The translations under genes were made by a program, and so were the position numbers. A stretch of 64,000 bases of DNA. It comes from a virus. Lineage: Duplodnaviria; Caudoviricetes. The stretch lies in IMG/VR virus record IMGVR_UViG_2974778606_000001, positions 1 to 64,000 of that record; one strand, written 5' to 3'. Below, one piece after another: positions 1 to 14,953 of the stretch (the stretch's first letter is position 1; every line of letters begins with the position of its first letter). A model generated the notes under the pieces. That model saw only the letters and a list, made by a program, of their open reading frames with translations. It was not told the origin of the DNA and did no database searches.

Positions 1-608
1 ATGGGGGTATGTTCCGCGCCGGAACATAATGCTTCCCCCTCCCTATATAACCTAGCAGACACATCTGACCCCGAATCCAAGCAAAATAAGCCTTCCAAGC
101 ATCGAAATCAGCCCTGAAAAATGGCTCAAAAATGGGAAAAATCACGATATTTTGCCCCGAAATCGGACATTTCGCCCCTAAAATGGCCCAAAATCCCGCA
201 ATTTTGACAAGCATTCGTAAAGAGACCTGGACTCAAGGAAAATCAGCCCGCAATCCATCAAATCTAACCATCATATCCCTGGAAATATAGGCATTCATCG
301 TAAATGGGCCACCAATCCGAAGTCCAATCAGTCTGACAGACCTTAGACTCATCAGAATACCTCTGCGATTCATAGAAACAGACTTGAGATTCATTGTCAG
401 AGTGTCGATTCTCCCTATATACACAAGCAATAGATGATATTGAAAAGCCCGGCAGTTTCAAGAGGTCTTCGTAAATGAACTAGATAGATACACACCTATT
501 ATAGGTCTATGTATATAGGGGAGAGGGACACCCATAGCTACCGGGCCTTGTTAAGAATCATGAATCCAACATCGTTTATTGAGCATGTATATAGCAGCAG
601 ACAACACT

Positions 609-636
609 AAAGCCACCCCGAAGGGTGGCTGTTTTT
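609..636. terminator. Intrinsic terminator-like hairpin
   Basis: AGCCACCC-CGAA-GGGTGGCT (611-630) flanked by AAA and GTTTTT. Confidence 0.6.
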
Positions 637-936
637 GCACTCAAAAATCTCTGTAAAAATCTCAAAACTCCTGGGAATTTGACCCCTGACTTAAAGGGCG
701 AAATCCCTGGAAAATTTGAGGCCCATCGTAAATGGGGAAAAGTCGGACAACTCGGACAAATCGCTGTTGATATTGGCAGACATCGGGAAGTTAGTTAGAG
801 TAGGTAACGAACCGGGGCGGTCTGAAATTGAAAGGTCCCCAGGGAGCGGCCGACCTTCCGCTAATTAAGCCCTCGCCAGATTGACTGATAGGGCCCCTGG
901 GGACACACTTTGAACTACTCTTCTATGTTAGCAAGG

Positions 937-1188
937 TCACTCTGCCTTGTCAAGGTTACGGAGAGTTTCTCCGAACAGACGCTCTACCTCCCAGTCTTCC
1001 AAGAGATAGGCAGTGTAGGTGGGAGAGGGTACAGGGATACTGACAGACCTTCCCCACTTCTTTGCCGGTTCGTTCCACACCTTACCAACGAAAGAGTTGG
1101 GAGTGATACCCACCACCTTGAAGTAGAAGCTACCAGAGGCAACAAGGTTACCCATGGACAGTTCGATGCTTTCCTTTACCGGCTTCAT
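937..1188 (-). CDS. Hypothetical protein (leaderless)
   Basis: 83-aa ORF; ATG lies 6 nt after the TAGACT -10. Confidence 0.75.
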   Translation of the reverse strand: MKPVKESIELSMGNLVASGSFYFKVVGITPNSFVGKVWNEPAKKWGRSVSIPVPSPTYTAYLLEDWEVERLFGETLRNLDKAE

Positions 1189-1285
1189 GAGTAGAGTCTA
1201 TCAGTTCAAGGGTGGCCTGTCTACCCACCGGGCCGGGGCGGCCAAAATCCCCTAGGCCCGTAGGCCCAGGGGACTGGCTTGCTGC

Positions 1286-2308
1286 TTACGCAGCCTTGGC
1301 GAACTCCTGAACGGCCTTCAGGATTCGGTTCTTTTCGGTGTTGACCACCGGGTCGAAACCGGAAGCCGCAATGAACAGGTTGTCCACGTTGCCACCACGG
1401 GGCATCCGGTACCAGTCGATACGCTCGGTCAGAGCGTTCAGAGCACCGGCCGCAGTCCCCTGAAGAGACTGAGTGGTCTTCGGACCGTCGCCCGTGTCGG
1501 TGTAGATACCCATGGTCAGGTCACGCTTGGTCTCCCACTTGACCATGCTGCCCTTGACATCCTTCTCAGGCTTGGGGTACAGCGTGGCGAACAGCGTGTC
1601 GAACTGGTCCTTAGAGACCGGCACGTCAGCCAGACCCTGCATGACCCGCTCGAACTCATCCGCGTAGGCGAACGTGATGTTCAGAGCCTCACGAGCCGCA
1701 GCCATGCGACCCTCGATGGTCTGCGTGTGGCGCATCTTGAACTGCTGCTTCACACCGTTACGGAGTGCGAAGTTGAGCGTGTTCTGACACACGACACGAA
1801 CCGGAGTGATGGACGCCTGAACGGCCACGGAGCCGTCGTGAGAGGTGTTGACCAGAAGATACAGCTTGGTCACGTCGTCGTCACCGATGACGATGTCACG
1901 AGAGATGGACAGAGAACCGAACACCACGCGACCGTCACGGATGCTGCCAGCCGTCTCCCACGTGCCACCGCCCGCGAGGATGCCGTCACCGAAGCTGAAC
2001 AGCTCCTCGTTCTGAACGACCTTGTACCGCTCGCCCACGGTGGCCAGAACATCGTTCTGACCGGTGTTGAACGGGTTGTCACGGACGACCATGTAAGGCT
2101 CCGTGACGAAGTTGTACGAGTCGGAGAGCATGCCCACGATGTCCTTCACGGACTCCAGGCGGACGTTCCAGCCCTTCAGGTGGGCCAGCGTCAGCATCTC
2201 GTCGGTGGTCAGCTCACCCTCGAACACGGTTCCGAGGTTGTGCCACGCGGGCTCCTGGCGAGAAGCGAACGCGACCTGACCCTTGGAACCAATCTCAAGA
2301 CCGTGCAT
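1286..2308 (-). CDS. DUF932 / TIGR03299-family phage-plasmid protein
   Basis: Motifs PAWHNLG, YKVVQNEELF, ETAGSIRDGR, LLVNTSHDGS, TPVRVVCQNTL; GGAGG RBS. Confidence 0.85.
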   Translation of the reverse strand: MHGLEIGSKGQVAFASRQEPAWHNLGTVFEGELTTDEMLTLAHLKGWNVRLESVKDIVGMLSDSYNFVTEPYMVVRDNPFNTGQNDVLATVGERYKVVQNEELFSFGDGILAGGGTWETAGSIRDGRVVFGSLSISRDIVIGDDDVTKLYLLVNTSHDGSVAVQASITPVRVVCQNTLNFALRNGVKQQFKMRHTQTIEGRMAAAREALNITFAYADEFERVMQGLADVPVSKDQFDTLFATLYPKPEKDVKGSMVKWETKRDLTMGIYTDTGDGPKTTQSLQGTAAGALNALTERIDWYRMPRGGNVDNLFIAASGFDPVVNTEKNRILKAVQEFAKAA

Positions 2309-2499
2309 GTTGTGCCTCCAAAGGCAGAGTTGGTTGGGGCAGGTACTTCCCGCCCTTCGATGTCTCTAGTCTAGCAGTAGTCTGGGGCCGATGTCTACCC
2401 ACCTGGTGTGTCTGCAATGTCCGTTTTGCCCTTTATGTCCGGGCCGGGGCGGCCCAAAACACGAAAGCCCCTCCGAAGAGGGGCCACGTGCTGAGTCTC

Positions 2500-2988
2500 T
2501 TAGAACGGAGGCTCATCCGAGTAATTGGCCGGGAAAACGGACGGGCAGGGACCGTGCGGCTGCTCCAGAATCTCACGCTCCCAGTCGGCCAGACCGGCAG
2601 TCAGGTTCGTGACGTACACGTCCACGATGTCCTTCGACTCCTTGAGACCCAGACCTGTGGCGTTGCGCACGTCCTTGATGACCTGAATCTTGCGCTTGGT
2701 TCCGTGCTTCTGAACCGCGTCCCGCACGACTTCCGCAGCACGACGGAGCTGGAAGTTGTAGACGCGCTCCATCTTCTGGAACTCCCACTGCTCGGGCGTG
2801 GGGATGGAGGTCAGGGACTTGCCCACCTCGTGACCGGACGTGTAACCCTCGTCGTAGCCGTTGCTGTGGGCCTCTCGCACACCGGCCGTGTGCAGTTCCA
2901 TGATGTTGCGAGCGATGTGCATCGCCTCGTGCAAGGTCAGACCACCCGCACGCTCGGAAAGAATGTCGAGGATGTCACCGAGGTGCAT
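2500..2988 (-). CDS. Protein with ribosomal L7/L12 C-terminal-like domain
   Basis: KIQVIKDVRNATGLGLKESKDIVD closely matches the L7/L12 CTD helix motif. Confidence 0.75.
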   Translation of the reverse strand: MHLGDILDILSERAGGLTLHEAMHIARNIMELHTAGVREAHSNGYDEGYTSGHEVGKSLTSIPTPEQWEFQKMERVYNFQLRRAAEVVRDAVQKHGTKRKIQVIKDVRNATGLGLKESKDIVDVYVTNLTAGLADWEREILEQPHGPCPSVFPANYSDEPPF

Positions 2989-3114
2989 GTCAGCTCCGTT
3001 TCTCAGGGAGTCCGTCTCCCTTTCGATGTCTCTATCTTAGCAGTATCAGGGGGATGAGTACAACCCCTCATGCCGGGCCGGGGCGGCCCGAAGGCCCCCG
3101 AAGGGGCCAACGGA

Positions 3115-3549
3115 TTACCAGCGAACTCCCACACCGTTTCCGCTCAGGGACTCGATGATGGACTTTGCGGCACGCAGGTCCATCGTGGGGTAGGTCTCAC
3201 GCAGCTTCTTGATGCATCGAATCTTCCGCTCCAGGTCACGGTAGCTGAACTCGCCCTCGGCCCAGATGGAAGCCACGGCCACGAGCTTGGTGTGGTCGAT
3301 TTCGGCGGTGAAGGTGTTCAGACGCTCACCGTGAGCCTTGCCCTGCTGGTATCCGTCCTCGAAAGCGGCCTCCACACGACGGTCCGCCTCCTTACGGGCC
3401 ACGTCCCAGATGTTGTTCTCCACCTCGTTGAGGCGGTTCAGGTGGGCCTCGAAGATGATGCGAGCCACATCGAACGCCTTCTTGAGGCTCATCTTCACAC
3501 CGTTCCCGTTGAAGATACGCAGGATACGGGCCTCGTCGAACTCAAACAT
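3115..3549 (-). CDS. Paralog of the preceding gene, divergent L7/L12-CTD-like protein
   Basis: KIRCIKKLRETYPTMDLRAAKSIIE; shared N-terminal pattern (A..IARxIxExH, GYxxG); start moved to 3549 by GGAGG RBS. Confidence 0.65.
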   Translation of the reverse strand: MFEFDEARILRIFNGNGVKMSLKKAFDVARIIFEAHLNRLNEVENNIWDVARKEADRRVEAAFEDGYQQGKAHGERLNTFTAEIDHTKLVAVASIWAEGEFSYRDLERKIRCIKKLRETYPTMDLRAAKSIIESLSGNGVGVRW

Positions 3550-3677
3550 GGTCGCCTCCACTCTCTGGGGTATCTCCCCTTCGATGTACTAAGCTTAACA
3601 GGTCTAGCGGGCAGATACAAGCCCTTCAAAACAGGCCGGGGCGGCCCAACGGGCCCCGTGTCAAGGGGCCCGGCAGG

Positions 3678-4013
3678 TCAAGGGTTCGTGTGTCCCCTTT
3701 TCAGTAGGATTTGTTCGATGACGAATTTCGAATCCATCACTCGATTGTATTCGTCGTCTGAGCGGCTTTCCTTTCTGCCTGCCCATGCATTCAACAGGGA
3801 AATGATGAATTGGAACATCACCACCTGCACAGGCTCAGGATAGGTCGAAAGCAGATAGGCGAATGCATGAGGGTCGAATGACCGCTTATCCATTTCGTCA
3901 ATCAGCTTATTGGCCAGACGCTCATACGAGGTAGGCCGTGGTGTTACGAGTCGCGCACCCTCATACATGTCAGGTGCGATGATGCTTACTCGTTTGAACG
4001 GACTACGCGTCAC
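3678..4013 (-). CDS. Hypothetical protein
   Basis: GTG start with GGAGAGG RBS, overlapping the end of the upstream ORF. Confidence 0.65.
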   Translation of the reverse strand: MTRSPFKRVSIIAPDMYEGARLVTPRPTSYERLANKLIDEMDKRSFDPHAFAYLLSTYPEPVQVVMFQFIISLLNAWAGRKESRSDDEYNRVMDSKFVIEQILLKRGHTNP

Positions 4014-4170
4014 CCTCTCCCCCAAAATCCTTCGTTGTGCCGTATCCGTCTGAGACGCTGACAGACACCTCCAGGAACTTTGCCATGAACTCTGCCGTAG
4101 CAGTAGCAAAGGGCCAGGAGGTGTCGTGCGCGTCATCGTCCGGAATGTCCAGTTCGATGACGATGTTCAT
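4003..4170 (-). CDS. Small acidic protein (55 aa, leaderless; not in ORF track)
   Basis: MNIVIELDIPDDDAHDTSWPF...; TAGGAT-6nt-ATG. Confidence 0.6.
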   Translation of the reverse strand: MNIVIELDIPDDDAHDTSWPFATATAEFMAKFLEVSVSVSDGYGTTKDFGGEGDA

Positions 4171-4179
4171 GACTCTATC

Positions 4180-4698
4180 CTATCGGGTGTGAATCTCGAC
4201 GTCCATCCCCAGCACCACCGGGGAGCCACAGGAGCAGTGCGACAGGCTGTAACCGCACTTGCACGCCTCGCGCTCACTCAGAACGATTCGCTTGTTGCCG
4301 TACCAAGCGAAGTACTCAGTGCGAGACGAACGGGTCGGAGCAGCGTGCGGACGAACGTCCTTACCGGTGACCTTGACCTTGACACCGGGCGCAGCCGGGG
4401 TCACTTCCGGGTTGTCCGCCTTGTAAGCGGCCAGCACCTCAGCGGACAGACGGCCACGCGCGTTGACCTGGAGTCCCTTGGACTTTGCCCACGCACGGAC
4501 AGCCTTGGCATCGAACTGACCGGCCTTGGGAGCGGCCTTGACAGCAGCACGCTTGACAGGCGCGTCAGCGTCAGCGAAGACCATGCCATCGGCCTCAGCC
4601 TTGGCAATGGCTTCATAGGCAGCCTTGGACATGCGACCACGCGCATCCTTAGCGAGGTTCAGCGAAACGGCGTACGCGCGACGGGTCATGGCAGACAT
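4180..4698 (-). CDS. Lsr2-like DNA-binding protein
   Basis: AVRAWAKSKGLQVNARGRLSAEVLAAY is the Lsr2 AT-hook domain; second ARGRMS motif at the N-terminus; Cys-rich C-terminus. Confidence 0.8.
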   Translation of the reverse strand: MSAMTRRAYAVSLNLAKDARGRMSKAAYEAIAKAEADGMVFADADAPVKRAAVKAAPKAGQFDAKAVRAWAKSKGLQVNARGRLSAEVLAAYKADNPEVTPAAPGVKVKVTGKDVRPHAAPTRSSRTEYFAWYGNKRIVLSEREACKCGYSLSHCSCGSPVVLGMDVEIHTR

Positions 4699-4819
4699 TT
4701 GGGGTTCCTCTCCCTCGGTGATGTCTCTAGTCTAAGGCATTGAAGGGGGTCGAGTCAACACGTCTAAATGTCCGTTTTGCCCGACTTGTCGGGCCGGGGC
4801 GGCCCCGAAGGCCCCTTCC

Positions 4820-4876
4820 TTAGAACTTAGGACACTGGACGTGATGACCGTTTTTCTGGTAGCAGGAATCACACAT
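4820..4876 (-). CDS. Putative 18-aa Cys/His micropeptide
   Basis: MCDSCYQKNGHHVQCPKF; overlaps the upstream stop and ends just before the cassette hairpin. Confidence 0.35.
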   Translation of the reverse strand: MCDSCYQKNGHHVQCPKF

Positions 4877-5618
4877 TGTTGACCTTCTTTCTCCTAGGAA
4901 CCTTAGAAGCGAATCGCACATCGGCCTTGCCAAAGATGCAAAGACCACACGTGAAGCATGCACCACCCTTTTCGGTGATAAGGGGAATGCGCTTGGCATT
5001 CTCAGGGCAGATAGCGCCAGGCTTGCCAGTTTCAGCAAGCATGAATTCCTTGCCCTTGTCATGCGTTTCTGCCAAATAGGCCAGACGCACGCCCTTGTAT
5101 GTGTTTTTGACGTACAGGGCAGCATCCTCATTCTCACTGTCTACACTCAGGTAAACAGCAAGGTTTGGGATTCCATTGATATACGACACGAACTCAAAGG
5201 AACGTGTGTAAATCCAGAATTGCACGTCAGGAAACATGTAAGCAATCTTGTTGATTGCCATTGCGTAGTCCGCAGAGAAGATGTCACCATCCGCGTGCCA
5301 GCGGAATACCTTGCTGATGTTGAACCTTGCGCATTCCTGAGAGAATTCCGCAATCATCTCTCGCAGCAGGTCCACCATTTCACTGAGAGATGCATCTTTC
5401 AGCAATTCCCAATTGTGCAGTGCGAGTTCACGGAATGCCGGATACATCTTTTCCAGCTTACCGGCATAGCAGACGCCCTCACACACGCCGGTCGCGCCAG
5501 GGCAGGAAAATGCCTTACCGCTGGGCAGAGAGAATGCATTTTTGAGAAGGGACTGAGTACCTGCCTTGTTGACACGCGCAGTCGTCTTACGGTCATGCGA
5601 GCGCTTGAGCTTAGACAT
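4869..5618 (-). CDS. Phage gp88-family protein (Cys-rich, radical-SAM-like fold)
   Basis: FSLPSGKAFSCPGATGVCEGVCYAGK, FRWHADGDIF, FWIYTRS, C-terminal CP..C..C..C. Confidence 0.7.
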   Translation of the reverse strand: MSKLKRSHDRKTTARVNKAGTQSLLKNAFSLPSGKAFSCPGATGVCEGVCYAGKLEKMYPAFRELALHNWELLKDASLSEMVDLLREMIAEFSQECARFNISKVFRWHADGDIFSADYAMAINKIAYMFPDVQFWIYTRSFEFVSYINGIPNLAVYLSVDSENEDAALYVKNTYKGVRLAYLAETHDKGKEFMLAETGKPGAICPENAKRIPLITEKGGACFTCGLCIFGKADVRFASKVPRRKKVNNV

Positions 5619-5724
5619 GGCGGTCCTTTCGTTGACGTAAGACGAGTCTAGCAGACATGGGGGACGTAAACAAGCCTTTGAAATGTCCGATTTGTCTGAC
5701 CGCCCCGGCCCGAAGGCCGCTCAG

Positions 5725-6033
5725 TCAGGCAGCGCTACGTTCCTCCGAACGGCTGTAGGGAAGTTCCGTGTTACGAACAATGGTGCTGAGAGAAACAGCG
5801 TTGATTGTCTTGTGTCCCAGCAGCCAAGCCATAACCACTCGATGCTGACCATTGTAGACAGTGCCATTCTGGAAATTGATAGGCATCTGAATACCATCAC
5901 GCTCACAAGAGATGATGAAATCATCGCTCATCTCAAAGAACAGCCGAGTGAAAAGGTCCATCGTGCTCTCACCCTCCTCGCGGTCTGCGAAGTCGGCACG
6001 GGCAACGATTGCGTCTACACTCAGCGTCTTCAT
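5725..6033 (-). CDS. ParB/Srx N-terminal domain-like protein (leaderless)
   Basis: GIQMPI...VYNGQHRVVMAWLLG; promoter lies inside the longer ORF call, so start is MKTLSV at 6033. Confidence 0.7.
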   Translation of the reverse strand: MKTLSVDAIVARADFADREEGESTMDLFTRLFFEMSDDFIISCERDGIQMPINFQNGTVYNGQHRVVMAWLLGHKTINAVSLSTIVRNTELPYSRSEERSAA

Positions 6034-6140
6034 AGGGATGAGTCTAGCAGAGTACACAGTCATGCGCAAGACCTCAATTATGTCCGTTTTGTCTGGCCGG
6101 GGCGGCCTAAATGACTAAGGGCCCCGAAGGGGCCCGGTGG

Positions 6141-6218
6141 TCAGACGAACAGAACAGGAAGGCAGAGGAACACGACCAGCACGACGAACAGGACCATCAG
6201 AAATTCTTCAAGGTCCAT
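6141..6218 (-). CDS. 25-aa single-TM micropeptide
   Basis: MDLEEFLMVLFVVLVVFLCLPVLFV; GGAGG RBS; TAATG coupling. Confidence 0.6.
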   Translation of the reverse strand: MDLEEFLMVLFVVLVVFLCLPVLFV

Positions 6219-6289
6219 TACTCACACACCTCCCGGTACCAAGCGTAGTGCGTGTACAGATAGAAGTGAAGCCAAGTTGTGAAATACAT
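6218..6289 (-). CDS. 23-aa aromatic-rich micropeptide
   Basis: MYFTTWLHFYLYTHYAWYREVCE; AGGAG RBS. Confidence 0.5.
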   Translation of the reverse strand: MYFTTWLHFYLYTHYAWYREVCE

Positions 6290-6296
6290 GACGCTC

Positions 6297-6596
6297 CTAG
6301 AAGAGTTCCGGTCCCGATTCGCTGTCTTCCGTCCAGTCATCAGTATACTCGATGAACTCGACATTGAGCAACCATGCAATCAAGACGCGGTGATGCCCGT
6401 TGAAGACAGTGTTGGATTCGGGAAGATAGATGATGGGGTCAAGGATGCCACGGGTACACGAGTCGATGAACTCAGGATTGCCGATGAACAGGTCATCGAA
6501 CTTCTCTTCGAGCATCTGCATCGTGGTGTGGTCTTTGGCAACAGCATCATTGAAGATAGCCGACTCAATCAGCTTCGCAACAGATACCTTTGCCAT
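6297..6596 (-). CDS. ParB/Srx N-terminal domain-like protein (paralog)
   Basis: GILDPII...VFNGHHRVLIAWLL; AAGGAGG RBS. Confidence 0.7.
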   Translation of the reverse strand: MAKVSVAKLIESAIFNDAVAKDHTTMQMLEEKFDDLFIGNPEFIDSCTRGILDPIIYLPESNTVFNGHHRVLIAWLLNVEFIEYTDDWTEDSESGPELF

Positions 6597-6708
6597 GGCC
6601 CCTCCTTGGCTTGATAAGACTACTCTACACGACTACCGGGCCTGTTGTCTAGTGCTACAACAAAATGACCGGGGCGGCCCAAAGGGGCCCCGAAGGGCCC
6701 CGATTGAC

Positions 6709-6978
6709 TCAGTCGTCCAGTTCCTTGGACGAACGCAGCTCCGGACGCTTGAGCAGCGAGGGGTCAGCCATCTTGACCTTGCCCTTGGACCGACCGACCC
6801 GAACCATCGGGAAGTTCTTCAGAACGTCGTCCACGCGCCTGGCGTCGGCGTCGAAGATGTCGAATCGCTGGTACGGAGCCTTGGTTGCGATGTCACCGAA
6901 CTCCACATCGATGCCCTGCACGATGAGGGCGACCCGGAGGGAGAGGGACTGAGAGACGGGAACGATACCGGCACGCAT
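6709..6978 (-). CDS. Hypothetical protein
   Basis: 89 aa; AGGAG RBS; fills a cassette. Confidence 0.75.
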   Translation of the reverse strand: MRAGIVPVSQSLSLRVALIVQGIDVEFGDIATKAPYQRFDIFDADARRVDDVLKNFPMVRVGRSKGKVKMADPSLLKRPELRSSKELDD

Positions 6979-7108
6979 GTGAACTCCTGAGAGTCGAAGT
7001 AAGCTGGGGTATTCAGTTATCAGAGACTTTGGCAGGAAGGGAAAAACCTCACGTTGCGAGGCCCTGTGGCCTGTCCCCTTGTGCTTAGCTAGAGTCTAGC
7101 AGGCTGAC

Positions 7109-7249
7109 CTACTCGCAGTCAACCAGGTACTCGGGCTCGTCGTCCTCGGAGGTGGTCCACACGTCGGACAGCCAGCCCTTACGGTAGAGAACCGGACCCT
7201 CGGTAACCTCGTCCTCGTTACCGAACAGCATCGAGCGAAGGTCTTCCAT
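7109..7249 (-). CDS. Small acidic protein (46 aa)
   Basis: MEDLRSMLFG...; GAGGAG RBS downstream of its own promoter. Confidence 0.65.
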   Translation of the reverse strand: MEDLRSMLFGNEDEVTEGPVLYRKGWLSDVWTTSEDDEPEYLVDCE

Positions 7250-7364
7250 AACACTCTCCTCTCTCGGGGAGGTTTCCCTCCCTTTCGATGTTCTAAGTCT
7301 ACATGACGGATGCGACAGTGGCAAGCACCCATTTTGGGCCGGGGCGGCCCCGAAGGGCCTTTCG

Positions 7365-7520
7365 CTAGTCTCCCATGTCGTCCAAGTGGGCATCGGGCGC
7401 AGGCTCGAACTCAAGGAAGGTGTCTTCGAAAAGCACCATCCATGCGTAGCCCTCACGATTGTCCGGATTGCACTTGCCCGTGTGTATCTCACCCATGGGT
7501 GCACCGCAGTCCATGCACAT
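7365..7520 (-). CDS. Small CxxC/H/C zinc-finger-like protein (51 aa; not in ORF track)
   Basis: MCMDCGAPMGEIHTGKCNPD...; directly follows the upstream stop. Confidence 0.6.
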   Translation of the reverse strand: MCMDCGAPMGEIHTGKCNPDNREGYAWMVLFEDTFLEFEPAPDAHLDDMGD

Positions 7521-7522
7521 TC

Positions 7523-7741
7523 TCAGACTCCGTTCCACGGCATGGCCACGAACATGTCCACGTTCTTCGTGTGAATGGCGATGCGGTTGCCGTTCTGGTC
7601 GGTGAGGTTGAACAGCAGCTCACCAGTGTCCACCGCGAGGTTCCATGCGGTGTTCATGCTGTCGGGAGTGGTGTCCTTGACCAGAATCTCGATGAACTTG
7701 TCACGCATGGCGTAGTAGACACGAACACGAACACCGAACAT
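7523..7741 (-). CDS. Hypothetical protein
   Basis: MFGVRVRVYY...; GGAGG RBS. Confidence 0.7.
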   Translation of the reverse strand: MFGVRVRVYYAMRDKFIEILVKDTTPDSMNTAWNLAVDTGELLFNLTDQNGNRIAIHTKNVDMFVAMPWNGV

Positions 7742-7860
7742 GATTGCCTCCATTCTCAGGGAGATTTTCTCCCTTTCGATGACTCTAGTCTACATGACTG
7801 ATGAGACTTGCACAAGTGGGCCGGGGCGGCCCAAAGGGCCCCCGAAGGGGCCCAGTGGGA

Positions 7861-8142
7861 TTACTTCTTGACCTTGCGGCGGTTGCTGTGGTTGCCGTTC
7901 ATCAGGGCCGTGAAGTCCAGCATGATGTTCTGCTTGAAGTTGGTCGCTCCGTGGAACTTGCCGTCCTGGTCACGGATGACGATGCGAACTTCGGTGTTGT
8001 CGCTGCCCGGAGTGGTCTTCCAGGTCTCCAGCCGGATGCTGTAGGTGGCCTTGGAGCCCTTGACCTTGAAGCCCTCGGAGATGGCGACGGAGGAGACGAT
8101 GTTCTTGAACTCGGTGTCGGTGTTCTTCGCCAGAGAGACCAT
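7861..8142 (-). CDS. Hypothetical protein
   Basis: 93 aa; GAGGAG RBS; own cassette. Confidence 0.75.
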   Translation of the reverse strand: MVSLAKNTDTEFKNIVSSVAISEGFKVKGSKATYSIRLETWKTTPGSDNTEVRIVIRDQDGKFHGATNFKQNIMLDFTALMNGNHSNRRKVKK

Positions 8143-8287
8143 GAAAGCTCCTCAGAGTCTTAGCTTGGGGTTCCTTCCCCCTTGCTGATAGCTAAAGTCT
8201 ACACGACCCAAGGGACATCGTGCAACCCATCTAGCTACCGGAATTTTGGGCCGGGGCGGCCAAAAGGCCCCCGAAGGGGCCAGTTGG

Positions 8288-8572
8288 TCAGCCGTTCTCC
8301 TTTTCCTCCTGAGCCCTGCGCAGGTACGAAAGGTCTTCCAGAGTGCGAGAGATGGCGTTCAGCGTCTCATACGCTTCGGCCTTGCTGAAACCGATGTACC
8401 CACGGTCACCCGTGCCAGGTGCAGCCGAACCGCCCTCTACGAACACACGGTGAGCAATGCCCATGGAGGGCGTACCTTCCTGATAGGACAGCTCCAGCTC
8501 AATGCCCATGGCTTCCCAGTTGCGACGGTAACGCTCAAGAGCGGTGATGATGTCAGCCTTGGAAACGCGCAT
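8288..8572 (-). CDS. Hypothetical protein
   Basis: 94 aa; own cassette. Confidence 0.75.
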   Translation of the reverse strand: MRVSKADIITALERYRRNWEAMGIELELSYQEGTPSMGIAHRVFVEGGSAAPGTGDRGYIGFSKAEAYETLNAISRTLEDLSYLRRAQEEKENG

Positions 8573-8671
8573 TTGGGGTTCCTTCCCTCTCGGTGTAAGT
8601 AGAGTCTAACACAGTCCAGGGGCTGAGTACAACACCCAATTTAGGCCGGGGCGGCCCCGAAGGGCCTCCCG

Positions 8672-9001
8672 TTACTTCAGCTTGGCCAGAAGAGAGCTGA
8701 TTTCCTGCCGAAGCTCCGATTCCGGACGCAGGCCGCGCTCCTCCTTCATCATACGCTCGAAATACGCCTTCAGCTCCGTCTTGTTGTACGGACCGTACAC
8801 GCCCTTGTCAGTGGTGTAATTGATTTTCTCGAAGGGCATCGGGCAGGAGCAACCAGAGTCGCTTGCCACGTAGTAACGTCCTCGCGCTTCCTTCCACACC
8901 TGAGTGATGTTGAACTGCCAGCTCTCCTGGTCCCAGTCGAACGAACCGATGTACTCCAGGGAGTCAAGCAGGACGAGCGGAGGCTTCGAAATGTCGGTCA
9001 T
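8672..9001 (-). CDS. Hypothetical actinophage protein (SDSGCSCPMPFE motif)
   Basis: 109 aa; own cassette. Confidence 0.75.
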   Translation of the reverse strand: MTDISKPPLVLLDSLEYIGSFDWDQESWQFNITQVWKEARGRYYVASDSGCSCPMPFEKINYTTDKGVYGPYNKTELKAYFERMMKEERGLRPESELRQEISSLLAKLK

Positions 9002-9112
9002 GGCGTTCCCCTCTCGGATTTCTTAGTCATAGTCTAGCAGGCCGATTTTTTAGTCGCAAGCCCAAACTCAAGATTTTTAGTCTGGGCCGGGGCGGCCCCG
9101 AAGGGCCGACCC

Positions 9113-9424
9113 TCACTCATAGGGTCGGTATTCGTCCCAATCCGCTCCCTCGTGGTTTTCGAACTCGATACGAACCGTGTCGCCCAGACGGTGATTCACG
9201 CTCCAAATCTCTCGATTGGAGCCCTGGTAGCGCCTCTGAGCCTTGGCCCACTTGTAGGTCTTTTCAGCGCGCTTGCGGGAACGGTGCTGCCAGGATTCGA
9301 CACAAACACCGTAGTTGAACCAGCGCCCGCCCTCTTCCGGACCACCATAGGCACGGTCGATGAAGTAGACGTTGACCCAGTGCTTGTTCCGACGACGCTG
9401 ACCGGAACGAAGACGCTTAGCCAT
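9113..9424 (-). CDS. Hypothetical phage protein (AYGGPEEGGRWF motif)
   Basis: 103 aa; GGAGG RBS; own cassette. Confidence 0.75.
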   Translation of the reverse strand: MAKRLRSGQRRRNKHWVNVYFIDRAYGGPEEGGRWFNYGVCVESWQHRSRKRAEKTYKWAKAQRRYQGSNREIWSVNHRLGDTVRIEFENHEGADWDEYRPYE

Positions 9425-9532
9425 TTGGCCTCCCTTGTTGATGACCTAAGTCTAACAGAAGCCTAGGACAGACACAACATGCTTGCCAGGATATGTAAGC
9501 ATCGAACCGCCCCGGTCCAAAAAATTCAGCAT

Positions 9533-9596
9533 AAAATTCACCCCTGTTTTCAACAGGTTTTCCCTTAGAAATTCCTTGAAAACAGGGGTGAATTTT
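9533..9596. repeat. Perfect 21-bp inverted repeat with 22-nt spacer
   Basis: AAAATTCACCCCTGTTTTCAA (9533-9553) / TTGAAAACAGGGGTGAATTTT (9576-9596). Confidence 0.9.
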
Positions 9597-9618
9597 TTCT
9601 ATGAAGTTTTTTCGAAGG

Positions 9619-9831
9619 TCAGAAGGGCACGATTTCGTTACTTCCATCGCCACAAAGGCAATGTTTCGAGTGTCGCGCCCCAACGGGGGTCATTCCACTT
9701 TCCCGAAACCGAACAATCATGTTCGGAAAGGAAGAAGTGGACATTACGCCCGATTCGGTCCGCAGACCGGCCCTCTCAAGAATCAGAGAGCCGGAATGCG
9801 TGAATCGAGGGGCTTTCTTCTTTCGAAGCAT
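9619..9831 (-). CDS. Hypothetical protein
   Basis: 70 aa; G-rich RBS; follows the 9849-9992 ORF. Confidence 0.45.
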   Translation of the reverse strand: MLRKKKAPRFTHSGSLILERAGLRTESGVMSTSSFPNMIVRFRESGMTPVGARHSKHCLCGDGSNEIVPF

Positions 9832-9848
9832 GTTTGCCCCTTTTTACA

Positions 9849-9992
9849 TCAGACGAGTTCGGACATGTGCGGGTAGGCGTCCCAGTCGAAGCCGTCCACA
9901 CGGTCCGCATCCTGCACGTCCGAGGCAGGCAGTTCGATGGTGCTCAGAACGCCAGCGTCACGGGCCTGCTCAAGAAGGTCACGAAGGTCCAT
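9849..9992 (-). CDS. Small acidic protein (47 aa; not in ORF track)
   Basis: MDLRDLLEQARDAGVLSTIEL...; GAGG RBS; promoter at 10025-10053. Confidence 0.65.
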   Translation of the reverse strand: MDLRDLLEQARDAGVLSTIELPASDVQDADRVDGFDWDAYPHMSELV

Positions 9993-10140
9993 GGTGTGTA
10001 CTTCCTCTCGCTTGGTGTAGTACCAGTCTAGCCCATGGGATGGGTAGATGCAAGCACGTAAATCGTGGGAATTTTTTGAGGGCCTTCGTACACGCGCGGG
10101 GGAAATGTGGGGAATCTACGTAATGCCCCTTAAAAGAGGT

Positions 10141-10245
10141 CTATATGGGTATACCCCATATGGGTGATATGCACTATATGGGTAGGTATGCACCTATATG
10201 CCCTATATGTACCCATATGTACCAGTATGGGTAGGTATGTCCCCA
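10141..10245. repeat. ~10-bp periodic TATG-containing degenerate tandem repeat
   Basis: ctatatgggt/cccatatgggt/gatatgcac/tatatgggt/aggtatgcac/ctatatgccc/tatatgtacc/catatgtacc/agtatgggt/aggtatgtcc. Confidence 0.75.
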
Positions 10246-10411
10246 ATGTCCGTTTTGTCCACCCCAGATTTGAGGGTGTCCGATTTGCCCCATATGTCGG
10301 GCCGCCTCGGTTCGTTACCAATCCTTTACCTAGAATCTTGCTGAATCTAGGGTTTAGCCCCTGTGGAGCGGGTACTATGTAGGCATAGCCACTACACACC
10401 AGGGAGACACG

Positions 10412-10876
10412 ATGAACGCCACCGCCACCGCCCCGGTCACCACGCACAACGCTGACAACCACCAGTGCCGAGCAGATGAGCGCACGGCCGGTAGCAAGTA
10501 CCGTAGGCAGATGGTCGCTACCATCCTGTACCTTGCCTCCCTCACTGGCCACAGTGACGGTAAGACCTACGCTGTGTGTGTGGGTTGTGGTGAGAATGCC
10601 TACCTTGACCGTTCCCCCCGTGCTATGGACGCGTTCAACATGGGGCACGTGCAGAGTGACGCTACGGGTGGCACGTACTGTGTGGCCAACATGCTTCCCC
10701 TTTGCCGACAGTGCAACGCTGACATGGGCAGTGACCACATGATGGACGTTCTCATTCCTCTTTATGACAATCGGGACATGTGGGATGGCAAGCTGCTGCG
10801 TGACCCCGGCATGGTCAAGGAAGAGGCGCACGCGAACCGTGGCCGTGCCTCTTGGAAGCGCCCTGAGAGCGTCTGA
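10412..10876 (+). CDS. HNH endonuclease
   Basis: CVGC...GHV...GG...NMLPLCRQCN. Confidence 0.8.
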   Translation: MNATATAPVTTHNADNHQCRADERTAGSKYRRQMVATILYLASLTGHSDGKTYAVCVGCGENAYLDRSPRAMDAFNMGHVQSDATGGTYCVANMLPLCRQCNADMGSDHMMDVLIPLYDNRDMWDGKLLRDPGMVKEEAHANRGRASWKRPESV

Positions 10877-10883
10877 GACGCTT

Positions 10884-10922
10884 TTCTCCCCTCCCTGGGA
10901 GTGGTGGCCCAGGGAGGGGAGA
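10884..10922 (+). terminator. Hairpin after HNH gene
   Basis: TCTCCCCTCCCTGGG...CCCAGGGAGGGGAGA. Confidence 0.55.
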
Positions 10923-11106
10923 TAGGCCCGGAGACGGGCGCACAGGGCTTTTGAAAGCCGTTTTCAAATGGCCTGCCCGGCATCGTGGAACCTTCCCCGG
11001 AGAGTTTGTCAAGGGGTATGGGCGCACTATCTGAATTGTTACAAAGGTATGCGGAGCATGTATCATACAAATTCAAAAATTACTAACATTTGTGTGTACT
11101 TTTATG

Positions 11107-13128: not shown

Positions 13129-13280
13129 TTGTTAGCAATCATCCATTCGTTGAGAGCGAATATTTCTCTTGATATGGCCTGTGCTCGCTTTTCGTTTTTT
13201 CCTCTTACCTTCAGATATTCTTCAGCAAGCTTAGCCTTTCGCTGCTGCGCTTCCTTCATGTTCTTAGGTATGGCACTCAT
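13125..13280 (-). CDS. Small basic protein (51 aa; not in ORF track)
   Basis: MSAIPKNMKEAQQRK...; ATGA overlaps. Confidence 0.65.
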   Translation of the reverse strand: MSAIPKNMKEAQQRKAKLAEEYLKVRGKNEKRAQAISREIFALNEWMIANK

Positions 13281-13600
13281 ACGTTATTCCTGTCCAAGAT
13301 ATCGTGTATCTCTTCTGGGTCTACCTCTCCATCGTATTTGTCGAAGCTTCGTAGTTCACGAACCGCTTCCTTGTACCGGCGATTTTCTGTCAAGTAATTG
13401 TCAGCATCATTAGCCCACCGGTAAGCATCATTACGAAGTGCTAGGAACTTATCACGAGGAATCTCTTCATTGGGCAATATATCGAATTCAACCCAGACTG
13501 AGTACTCCTCTTCTGTCATTCCTAGAAACTCGTGGAGTGACAAACTGCTTTCGCTGTCATGCCACTTGTCCACGAGGTCTTCTAGTTGTCCTCTATTCAT
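13277..13600 (-). CDS. Hypothetical protein
   Basis: 107 aa; LHEFLGMTEEEY motif. Confidence 0.75.
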   Translation of the reverse strand: MNRGQLEDLVDKWHDSESSLSLHEFLGMTEEEYSVWVEFDILPNEEIPRDKFLALRNDAYRWANDADNYLTENRRYKEAVRELRSFDKYDGEVDPEEIHDILDRNNV

Positions 13601-13976
13601 GTCCCCAGTTTGTCACGCGCCGGGGACATTGTCAAGACGTGACACTGCCTTGTTCACCGTATTCACTGGGACATCTGTCCCCTTGATGTCACAAATCTGC
13701 TTGTGCAATTCTGTCCTGTCCGTGACACCTTGAGACCATAGCTCTCTGACCAGGGCGGACACTGATTTGTCACCTTGTCCTGTGACACTTTTTGTCACTG
13801 GGACAGGCTTTGTCACTGTATCGGTGACAGGGACATCAGGTGTCGTGACAGAAAATGTCTTGTCCTGGGACATGTCACTTGTCTTGTCACGCTTGTCCTT
13901 TTTGTCCTTCTTCGGTGTCACCTTGTCACCAGACTTTGTCCTCTCGATAGGTTGTCCTGTGACACCCGTGACAACC
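13586..13976. repeat. Dense intragenic TGTC/GACA (TGTCAC, TGTCC) motif cluster
   Basis: About 36 occurrences in ~380 bp, both orientations, several reading frames (manual count; ~3 expected). Confidence 0.85.
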
Positions 13977-14494
13977 TCGTTCAGACGGAAGAATACCACG
14001 TTCTTGAAGCCACGGAAAGTCTTGCCTGGGAAGATAAGCCAGCTAATCTTACCAAACACTGGCATACGCTTCGGGACGAGGCCCATGGCTCGCATTTCAC
14101 TTCTGTGGATGAAGCGCAAATAAAGCTCGAAAAGAATACCTGCGATAACTGGTGGTGCTCCAAAAAGAACCATTCCAGGGACCCCGTAGGACAGCAGGAT
14201 GGCGTGTTCTACGTTGAGGTATACAGACGCACCAACAAACAGATACGTCGCTAGTTTTGTTGCTAGACCAGAGTCTTCTGTTCTGGCGTACTTGCTGGCA
14301 AGGTCAGCGACAAACAAAGCCGCTCCATCGAATGCAGCACTGACACCAATAGCAAGAATCTGTGGGACTCCATAGAAGGTTACCGCAAGAGAATAGAGCG
14401 ACCACCAGCTAAGTGCCAGAGCAACGATTAGAACGACTCCGAATGAGACGGAACCTCGCCAATCAAGAACCCTCTTGATATTTGGCTTGTTCAC
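13613..14494 (-). CDS. DUF2637-like (plasmid Spd-type) membrane protein with low-complexity linker and C-terminal helical domain
   Basis: Four TM segments (ALALSWWSLYSLA, AAFDGAAL, GASVYLNVEHA, GAPPV), T/D/K/V/P-rich linker, putative HTH. Confidence 0.65.
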   Translation of the reverse strand: MNKPNIKRVLDWRGSVSFGVVLIVALALSWWSLYSLAVTFYGVPQILAIGVSAAFDGAALFVADLASKYARTEDSGLATKLATYLFVGASVYLNVEHAILLSYGVPGMVLFGAPPVIAGILFELYLRFIHRSEMRAMGLVPKRMPVFGKISWLIFPGKTFRGFKNVVFFRLNEVVTGVTGQPIERTKSGDKVTPKKDKKDKRDKTSDMSQDKTFSVTTPDVPVTDTVTKPVPVTKSVTGQGDKSVSALVRELWSQGVTDRTELHKQICDIKGTDVPVNTVNKAVSRLDNVPGA

Positions 14495-14513: not shown

Positions 14514-14541
14514 TGCAGGCGGTCCTTCTCGGACCGCCTGC
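14514..14541 (-). terminator. Hairpin downstream of dps
   Basis: GCAGGCGGTCC-TTCTC-GGACCGCCTGC. Confidence 0.6.
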
Positions 14542-14551
14542 TATTTAATTG

Positions 14552-14953
14552 TTATTTTGCTGACTCGGTCAACATCCAGAGCCACTTGTCGACGCCTCGC
14601 TTGATTTCAATCAGGACATCCTGAGTTGCAAGGTCATCAGTAATGTTCAGTATAGCAGTCTGTAGTAGGTTGGTCAATCCCCTCAAGGAACTGATGAGAC
14701 CCTGAACAGTCTGCGAATAGCTTACTGATTCGCCGCTGAATTCGTAGGCAACCTTTGGTGCAAGGTAAAGCTCAATCGCTCTTGCCCGCTCTGCAAGTGT
14801 GTCAGCGTATTCAGTTATATCGGAGTAAAGCTCGTCAAGCTTCTCGTGGAAGTAGAGAAATTCCCTACCCCTGAGATTCCAATGACTCTCCTTGACGACC
14901 AAGGAGAGAATCAGGAGCCATTCGAGCGTTTCTTCCATCTTTGCTTCTAGCAC
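14552..14953 (-). CDS. dps: Dps / ferritin-like DNA-protection protein
   Basis: HWNLRG.EF...HEKLDELY......DTLAERARAI, DLATQD, DKWLWML. Confidence 0.88.
   Translation of the reverse strand: MLEAKMEETLEWLLILSLVVKESHWNLRGREFLYFHEKLDELYSDITEYADTLAERARAIELYLAPKVAYEFSGESVSYSQTVQGLISSLRGLTNLLQTAILNITDDLATQDVLIEIKRGVDKWLWMLTESAK

Follow-up and report, generated by a model that had tools for sequence, protein, structure and literature searches.

Initiator proteins that have binding sites in their own genes are known for lambda (O, with ori-lambda), SPP1 (G38P, with oriL and oriR) and P4 (alpha, with ori and crr). The phi29 protein p16.7, an early membrane protein with a single transmembrane (TM) helix and a cytoplasmic helical domain that binds DNA non-specifically, organises replication at the membrane. 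Among Streptomyces elements, plasmid TraB proteins read 8-bp repeats in clt, and actinophage homologues of SpdB2, putative examples of which have been noted in phiC31 and VWB, were suggested to aid the spread of phage DNA (PMC4447253). Here, we describe a locus that resembles each of these systems in part, viz., a gene for a DUF2637 membrane protein of 293 amino acids (aa) on the minus strand (positions 13613-14494) of a Streptomyces phage of cluster BE1. The window, i.e., the whole stretch of 64,000 nucleotides that was analysed (positions 1 to 64,000 of IMG/VR record IMGVR_UViG_2974778606_000001), is the left 64 kb of the linear phage genome of 132,885 bp. Short DNA words are packed into the 3' part of the gene (array 1), and we regard it as somewhat probable that the encoded protein binds this array in its own gene and so acts as a self-encoded DNA-to-membrane anchor specific to its replicon. 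In the literature searched, arrays inside DUF2637 genes were not found to be described, and the only two papers that mention DUF2637 are unrelated.

Array 1 consists of about 37-39 GACA-core words (GTGACA and RGGACA), in both orientations, at positions 13555-13976 within and just after the DUF2637 gene. Between 13586 and 13976, 24 TGTC and 13 GACA words add up to 37, against about 4 expected from the window's own word frequencies, in agreement with the original prediction made from the sequence alone (about 36 words, about 3 expected); TGTCAC/GTGACA accounts for 16 occurrences and TGTCC/GGACA for 17. Over the whole genome, TGTC/GACA words occur with a mean of 4.1 per 400 bp (standard deviation, SD, 2.7); the maximum of 37 is at 13572-13971, the next-densest 400 bp, at 77.5 kb, has 26 and every other place has at most 13. 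An unbiased scan for locally over-represented 6-mers also placed array 1 first in the genome, with GTGACA present 16 times. The gene's 5' half contains only 3 TGTC/GACA words. The words fall in five strand/frame classes and encode VT, DK, DM, GQ, RT, KT, PV, SV, GV and others. They also run past the end of the gene, as had been noted together with their mixed orientations and frames: the stop codon (13613-13615) is overlapped by a copy at 13611, two further copies are found beyond it at 13600 and 13587, in the 12-bp spacer and the first codons of the next gene, and the array extends about 30-60 bp beyond the stop. The spacing of the words is irregular, with nearest neighbours mostly 5-13 bp apart, and a search for helical phasing revealed only a 3-bp (codon) periodicity and no 10-11-bp phase. 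An origin of array 1 by tandem duplication was considered and rejected, as Tandem Repeats Finder finds nothing.

The encoded peptide explains a part of this enrichment only. With the peptide fixed over the last 387 nt of the gene, where 34 words are observed, resampling of the codons according to the phage's own usage gave 10.8 +/- 2.4 words (maximum 20) and permutation of synonymous codons within the region gave 17.4 +/- 2.3 words (maximum 25), each in 2000 trials; of these 34 words, amino-acid content accounts for no more than 11-17. The possibility that amino-acid composition explains the enrichment, named beforehand as one that would count against a DNA-level role, is thus practically removed, with no trial of the 2000 above 25. 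Because of these codon controls, and because a part of the second array described below is non-coding, we conclude, as had been supposed, that the word enrichment reflects selection at the level of the DNA rather than the peptide.

A second array of the same GACA-core words (array 2) is present outside the window, at about 77,530-77,945 of the genome, or 77,440-77,945 at its widest, and 64 kb from array 1. It spans much of a gene for a DUF3307 membrane protein and then about 100 bp of non-coding DNA in which GTGACATGTCC occurs four times. The DUF3307 gene has 17 words, compared with 7.9 +/- 1.6 under the synonymous null (maximum 13 in 2000 trials). The DNA after array 2 contains a GC-rich hairpin and a conserved TTGACA-N18-TAAGGT promoter, the leader of which is A+T-rich; array 2 sits between a terminator-like hairpin and the conserved promoter, and a stretch of about 75% A+T lies 150-350 bp downstream, behind the promoter. 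The non-coding part of array 2 is conserved in BE1 phages, BE2 phages and Coruscant. Array 2 is missing in Tomas and partly in Jay2Jay and is therefore dispensable; nevertheless, it proves that the word is a DNA element. In both Tomas and Jay2Jay a hydrolase or purple-acid-phosphatase gene is inserted exactly at the site of the non-coding part of array 2 in other BE phages, and the DUF3307 gene of Tomas has also lost its words (locus L045:6229-8079; the Jay2Jay locus is L019:2567-4519). A dispersed regulon of the 'stoperator' type was rejected, as GTGACA is found in 60 copies outside the two arrays while about 65 are expected by chance.

The protein encoded by the gene was modelled with AlphaFold2 (AF2) using 31 homologs, and it combines a membrane domain, a linker and a small helical domain, as had been anticipated. 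The match to the Pfam family DUF2637 (PF10935), shared by most homologs, scores 25.8 bits against a cut-off of 22.8 and aligns residues 21-165 with profile positions 10-150 of 161. Residues 1-180 (13955-14494, minus strand) form the DUF2637 domain, with four TM helices and an amphipathic juxtamembrane stretch, as delineated by AF2, hydropathy and invariant alignment columns; the predicted membrane helices comprise residues 6-40, 45-69, 76-100 and 104-137, with a predicted local distance difference test score (pLDDT) of 73-84. Basic residues are found at the N-terminus, in the loop between helices 2 and 3 and after helix 4 and, by the positive-inside rule, both ends of the protein, including the C-terminal tail, should therefore be cytoplasmic. 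Residues 181-240 (13775-13954, minus strand) are predicted to be a disordered linker rich in V-T, D-K and P-V (pLDDT 29-43, gap-rich columns); the stretch that codes for this linker is the densest part of array 1, and the length and sequence of the linker vary among homologs.

The tail, residues 241-293 (13616-13774, minus strand), is predicted with a pLDDT of 82-90 to be a three-helix domain (helices 245-254, 260-271 and 277-285) and is our putative DNA reader; the array continues through its coding sequence. Its nearest solved folds are mostly helix-turn-helix (HTH) or winged-helix DNA binders, with weak Z scores of 4.5-5.4, and include the StbA DNA-binding domain, the N-terminal domain of the small terminase, ToxR, Fur and Lrp. 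The best VIA-align match is that of the small terminase, with a Z score of 5.4 and a root-mean-square deviation of 3.3 over 51 residues, and the top Foldseek match for the tail is that of the StbA DNA-binding domain, with an E-value of 1.8 and a TM (template modelling) score of 0.50, all matches having E-values of at least 1.8. Sequence and profile searches of the PDB, NCBIfam and PADLOC with the tail and the protein found no matches, the tail has no match in Pfam, a Foldseek search of the PDB with the full-length AF2 model gave nothing below an E-value of 0.4 and a search of the ESM Atlas with the C-terminal domain gave no usable match. Thus, folding the C-terminal domain supported the predicted small helical domain as a three-helix bundle with weak HTH and winged-helix resemblance, but profile searching gave it no family. 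The tail domain is rare, with 14 clusters among 1.84 billion representatives, and it nearly always ends proteins of about 290 aa with the same architecture, though twice it stands behind an unrelated soluble N-terminal domain.

The words differ together with the tail. Every BE-type homolog keeps an in-gene array despite the variation of its linker in length and sequence, the array is at the same place in 13 of the 15 homologs tested, and the in-gene array is the densest 6-mer cluster of the genome in this phage, Kromp, MulchRoom and MiniFlayer. Phages with a tail of the type GVTDR...NKAV (BE1 and Coruscant) have 10-15 copies of RG-GACA, and CGT-GACA is a minority of their GT-GACA words, whereas those with a tail of the type GTRDK...TVAL (BE2) have no RG-GACA and 14-15 copies of CGT-GACA. 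Tomas, the tail of which combines GTRDK with SKAV, has 10 copies of RG-GACA and 14 of CGT-GACA, and is a natural mosaic that carries both word classes. Arrays 1 and 2 change in step; for example, Karimac lacks RG-GACA in either array, while BE1 phages have it in both. More distant tails are accompanied by other words, such as CCGGACAC in Kromp, CACGACAG in MulchRoom, AAGACAA and TGGACAC in metagenomic phages, AGGACAG in an integrated element and GCGCTCA, present 21 times, in the DUF2637-gene array of a 93-kb phage-plasmid. The original prediction had asked whether homologs carry distinct motifs that co-vary with the helical domain, and the comparison of these sequences indicates that they do.

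MulchRoom and MiniFlayer are published satellite phages that were reported to lack replication genes, and their membrane protein is a member of the DUF2637 family described here. The helper MulchMansion has 15 copies of GTGACA and no ACGACA, whereas its satellite MulchRoom has 16 copies of ACGACA and no GTGACA. In MiniFlayer, the DUF2637-like protein (locus L047:14392-15336) has a linker rich in N and A, encoded by an array of 14 copies of TGCGAA/TTCGCA, and its tail is a different C-terminal domain; TGCGAA has no relation to the GACA core that the helper family uses. The words of the satellites are thus orthogonal to that of the helper, and a private pair of reader and word for each co-infecting replicon is the pattern expected of a determinant of identity or incompatibility, for example an origin, centromere or transfer site. 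Homologs that are 42-48% identical are also found in small low-GC integrated elements of Streptomyces chromosomes, which have genes for an integrase, Lsr2, a terminase, a portal and a capsid protein. One such element of about 13 kb with 54-58% GC (locus L021:3324-16089; also on a metagenomic contig, L022) has genes for an integrase, an HTH regulator, Lsr2, a DUF2637 homolog with an AGGACAG/GAGACA array, a terminase, a portal, a scaffold and a capsid protein, and no tail or replicase genes were found in it; it looks like an integrated relative of MulchRoom-type satellites.

Based on these observations, we hypothesize that the DUF2637 protein anchors the DNA that encodes it. The four-helix DUF2637 domain would sit in the cytoplasmic membrane, the flexible linker of about 60 residues would reach into the cytoplasm and the C-terminal three-helix domain would read the 6-7-bp GACA-core word as a monomer and in either orientation. 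With about 37 words in 400 bp, roughly one per helical turn, such dense packing would let many membrane-held copies coat the same stretch of about 400 bp, so that this part of the genome would be tied to the membrane at high avidity. With the sites inside the gene, the recombination by which these genomes become mosaic would not separate them from their reader, and each replicon, phage or satellite, would thereby gain a private address. The purpose that we prefer is that the genome would be brought to a membrane-bound DNA-handling site, i.e., a replication site or the phage's own TraB/FtsK-like translocase. The binding of the words by the tail, the holding of the DNA at the membrane and this purpose are all inferred.

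Several observations weigh against such an anchor. The fold matches of the tail (Z of about 5, Foldseek E-value of about 2) lie within the range that chance produces for small helical bundles, and the searches found no sequence relative of the tail with a solved structure. The distant homologs of Muntaha and P0075 lack an array both within the gene and close to it, the tail of Muntaha being similar all the same, and a whole-genome 6-mer scan of Muntaha revealed no displaced array. Array 2 is absent from Tomas, as is its non-coding part from Jay2Jay. In addition, the independent lineages behind the link between word and tail are few, and common descent could explain a part of this link.

The alternative that survives best, though we consider it rather unlikely, is a more specific version of the anchor and not its opposite, namely that the words serve as iterons and that the DUF2637 protein, anchored in the membrane, binds this origin and recruits the DnaB, primase and DnaE of the phage. 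Satellites without a recognisable replicase would then bring their own initiator-iteron pair and borrow the replisome of the helper. Such a role would fit the position of the sites in the linker-coding part of the binder's own gene, as in lambda O/ori-lambda and SPP1 G38P/oriL, the presence of a second site far away in array 2, and the conserved promoter and A+T-rich stretch that follow it. It would also fit the annotation of the BE phages, which lists a helicase, a primase, a single-stranded DNA-binding protein and a polymerase yet no initiator, and the fact that the membrane protein of the satellites belongs to the DUF2637 family with a private word in each. However, no A+T-rich unwinding element adjoins array 1, Tomas does without array 2, no helicase, primase or AAA+ domain was found in the protein by Pfam and NCBIfam profile searches, and the irregular 6-bp words, about 37 of them, do not resemble the iterons of known origins, which are few, longer and phased. 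The cumulative GC skew reaches its minimum 3 kb away from array 1, at about 17 kb, but it was set aside as an origin marker, as the minimum coincides with the switch of transcription direction and is uninformative. A search of sequencing runs turned up none from infected cells; it listed no RNA run, and the best DNA run has 0.26 of the sampled words.

The anchor could also act on behalf of a DNA pump. A protein of 605 aa encoded outside the window (genome positions 73,724-75,541), 2 kb upstream of array 2 and about 60 kb from the DUF2637 gene, has two TM helices, a Walker A motif (GGGKS), a Walker B motif and weak matches to TrwB and FtsK; its C-terminal stretch is winged-helix-like by eye, from the sequence, and a gene for a small membrane protein follows it. 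The gene was found via the annotation of Jay2Jay, PHROGs and homolog searches, and the PF01580 (FtsK_SpoIIIE) profile has no match in the phage's own genome at an E-value of 0.001 or below. Its relatives, 36-50% identical and about 680 aa long, are found in actinomycete mobile elements, in Streptomyces prophage or phage-plasmid elements next to a conserved gene of about 450 aa, those in cells lying in prophage-like elements and not in classical conjugative plasmids. The one-gene system that had been predicted is hence right about the array in the protein's own gene and incomplete as to the second array 64 kb away and the TraB/FtsK-like gene near it.

By analogy with TraB and clt (PMC4447253), this TraB-like protein is a candidate reader of the words, and one may picture both arrays as clt-like sites recognised by a pump that passes double-stranded phage DNA from hypha to hypha or through septal cross-walls, the DUF2637 protein serving it as a channel or adaptor of the Spd type. 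The domain content and mobile-element relatives of the pump, its closeness to array 2, the small membrane protein after it and the 8-bp clt repeats of the plasmid TraB proteins all speak for this picture, as does the 93-kb phage-plasmid with the GCGCTCA array, in which a TraB-like ORF (open reading frame) lies about 3 kb from the DUF2637 gene. We nevertheless think it improbable. No FtsK-like gene was detectable in Kromp, MulchRoom and MiniFlayer, all of which have arrays; the C-terminal stretch of the TraB-like protein is almost invariant between BE1 and BE2 while their word classes differ; the satellites do not copy the helper's word, as direct use of the helper's pump would demand; and the prophage-like setting of the cellular relatives departs from that of plasmid transfer. 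Because of the first three of these points, the DUF2637 tail seems more likely than the TraB-like protein to be the reader of the words, and the translocase could instead be a partner of the DUF2637 membrane domain.

A regulatory role, in which the arrays are operator clusters or roadblocks and a membrane-held or other factor controls the leftward operon and the promoter past array 2, is still harder to credit. Array 2 does lie between a terminator-like hairpin and a conserved promoter, array 1 immediately precedes the genes that follow in the leftward operon, and the weak fold matches of the tail include ToxR, which is a membrane-bound transcription factor. Yet tens of sites in 400 bp, mostly coding, go far beyond what operators need, no enrichment is seen at other promoters, GTGACA outside the arrays being at its chance level, and the satellites keep the array without an obvious target promoter. 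Lastly, it is very improbable that the words have no function in the DNA and are a by-product of a low-complexity V-T/D-K linker or of replication slippage, for although the amino-acid content of the linker alone lifts the expectation from 4 to about 11 words, the observed number exceeds the codon-usage null by about 10 SD and that of synonymous permutation by 7 SD, no tandem unit exists, word density is kept while the linker varies in sequence and length, and the same words recur 64 kb away in a non-coding stretch and an unrelated membrane-protein gene.

Should the words be bound by the tail as proposed for the anchor, the locus would be a compact cis/trans system in which one gene provides both a membrane anchor and its own DNA address. 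The family reaches across about 100 sequenced Streptomyces phages, phage-plasmids, integrated elements and the two published satellites, with a private word each. It would offer a handle on the site at which large lytic actinophages put their DNA inside a host that is multicellular and septated, on whether phage DNA can use a TraB-type pump, and on how satellites without a replicase are replicated or sorted apart from their helper. Orthogonal pairs of word and tail may be useful as natural, programmable DNA-to-membrane tethers, and the linker would illustrate that the amino-acid sequence of a disordered region can be dictated by selection for binding sites in the DNA. More speculatively, and at a level of confidence well short of that for the anchor itself, the DUF2637 protein and its in-gene array might be the replicon-identity module of BE-type phages and their satellites, i.e., a membrane-anchored origin or docking protein with private sites in its own gene. 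Such a module, if real, would explain how MulchRoom and MiniFlayer, which lack a replicase, and integrated relatives are replicated or handled by helper machinery without cross-talk, and the mobile elements of actinomycetes would then share a class of cis/trans pairs that is widespread and so far undescribed. Array 2, the Tomas mosaic, the orthogonality of helper and satellite and the comparison with the TraB-like protein are new here.

The genomic setting of the gene is as follows. The genome ends in an exact direct terminal repeat of 11,063 bp, and its identity over the stretch compared is 95% with Anedea and Riptide, which are Streptomyces phages of cluster BE1, and 82-84% with others of that cluster. 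Transcription is leftward from the left end to about 17 kb, and structural genes on the plus strand begin at about 17.4 kb. The DUF2637 ORF has a GTG start codon with a ribosome-binding site (AAGGAG) upstream, matches phrog_10376 with an E-value of 9e-148 and has relatives in about 100 Streptomyces phage records. Its upstream neighbour (14552-14953, minus strand) encodes a ferritin/Dps-like protein of 133 aa (Pfam PF00210, E-value 3e-10) that related phages annotate as DNA-binding or Dps. Between these two genes lies a perfect GC-rich hairpin with an 11-bp stem (14515-14541), terminator-like on both strands and only 20 bp upstream of the DUF2637 start codon, so that expression of the DUF2637 gene needs read-through or an unrecognised promoter. 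The downstream neighbour (13277-13600, minus strand), the first codons of which hold the last words of array 1, encodes a hypothetical protein of 107 aa, and farther downstream in the leftward operon are small ORFs, a NUDIX gene and ThyX. The terminal repeat (1-11,063) has 51-59% G+C, compared with 46-50% in the remaining window, and consists of small genes in leftward orientation, each of which has a spacer to itself; Anedea, a close relative, has Lsr2-like and ParB-N-domain genes among them. Seven CCCATA/TATGGG words, several of them arranged as CCCATATGGG palindromes, are clustered at 10,144-10,300, about 0.8 kb inside the right edge of the repeat, and recur in the right repeat at about 131.9 kb; only two 6-mer clusters of the genome are denser.

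Compared with the systems described at the outset, the protein resembles SpdB and SpdB2 in having four TM helices, as seen by AF2 and hydropathy, and, by the positive-inside rule, a probably cytoplasmic C-terminal part. However, SpdB2 of pSVH1 binds DNA non-specifically and has no described cognate array, and the DUF2637 gene lies outside any spd operon, in the leftward operon of a virulent phage with the TraB-like gene 60 kb away. The label 'Spd-like' given in the original prediction is not established, since SpdB of pIJ101 has no Pfam match, to DUF2637 or otherwise, and its comparison with the family profile by hhalign yields a probability of only 1.8% (E-value 0.027, 57 columns). Like p16.7 of phi29, the DUF2637 protein would be an early phage membrane protein that tethers DNA to the membrane through a helical domain, if its presumed DNA binding is real, whereas p16.7 has one TM helix, no sequence specificity and no cognate array; searches of the PDB found no sequence or fold match between the two. 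A small HTH domain that binds an array of short repeats so as to position a replicon is seen in StbA/stbS of R388 and in ParB/parS, which differ in that no partner ATPase is found beside the DUF2637 gene, and that the protein is membrane-anchored and the phage lytic.

Further parallels are clt/TraB and the initiators with sites in their own genes. In pSVH1, pJV1 and pIJ101, as proposed for the phage, a cluster of short words marks the replicon for a membrane-bound DNA handler with element-specific specificity, and the cis site lies in or beside the transfer gene; the phage also encodes a TraB/FtsK-like ATPase. Unlike clt, which has few direct 8-bp repeats, the phage array has about 37 words in both orientations, these follow the DUF2637 tail and not the winged-helix-like stretch of the TraB-like protein, arrays exist without TraB, and the host element is a virulent phage of 133 kb. 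Unlike the own-gene initiators, the DUF2637 protein is membrane-embedded and has no helicase-loading or helicase domain, and its words are shorter, far more numerous and irregular, with no A+T-rich element adjoining array 1. With lambda O, SPP1 G38P and P4 alpha, on a textbook comparison, the locus nonetheless shares sites in the linker-coding region of the putative binder, a second cluster elsewhere in the genome and a specificity that appears private to the replicon.

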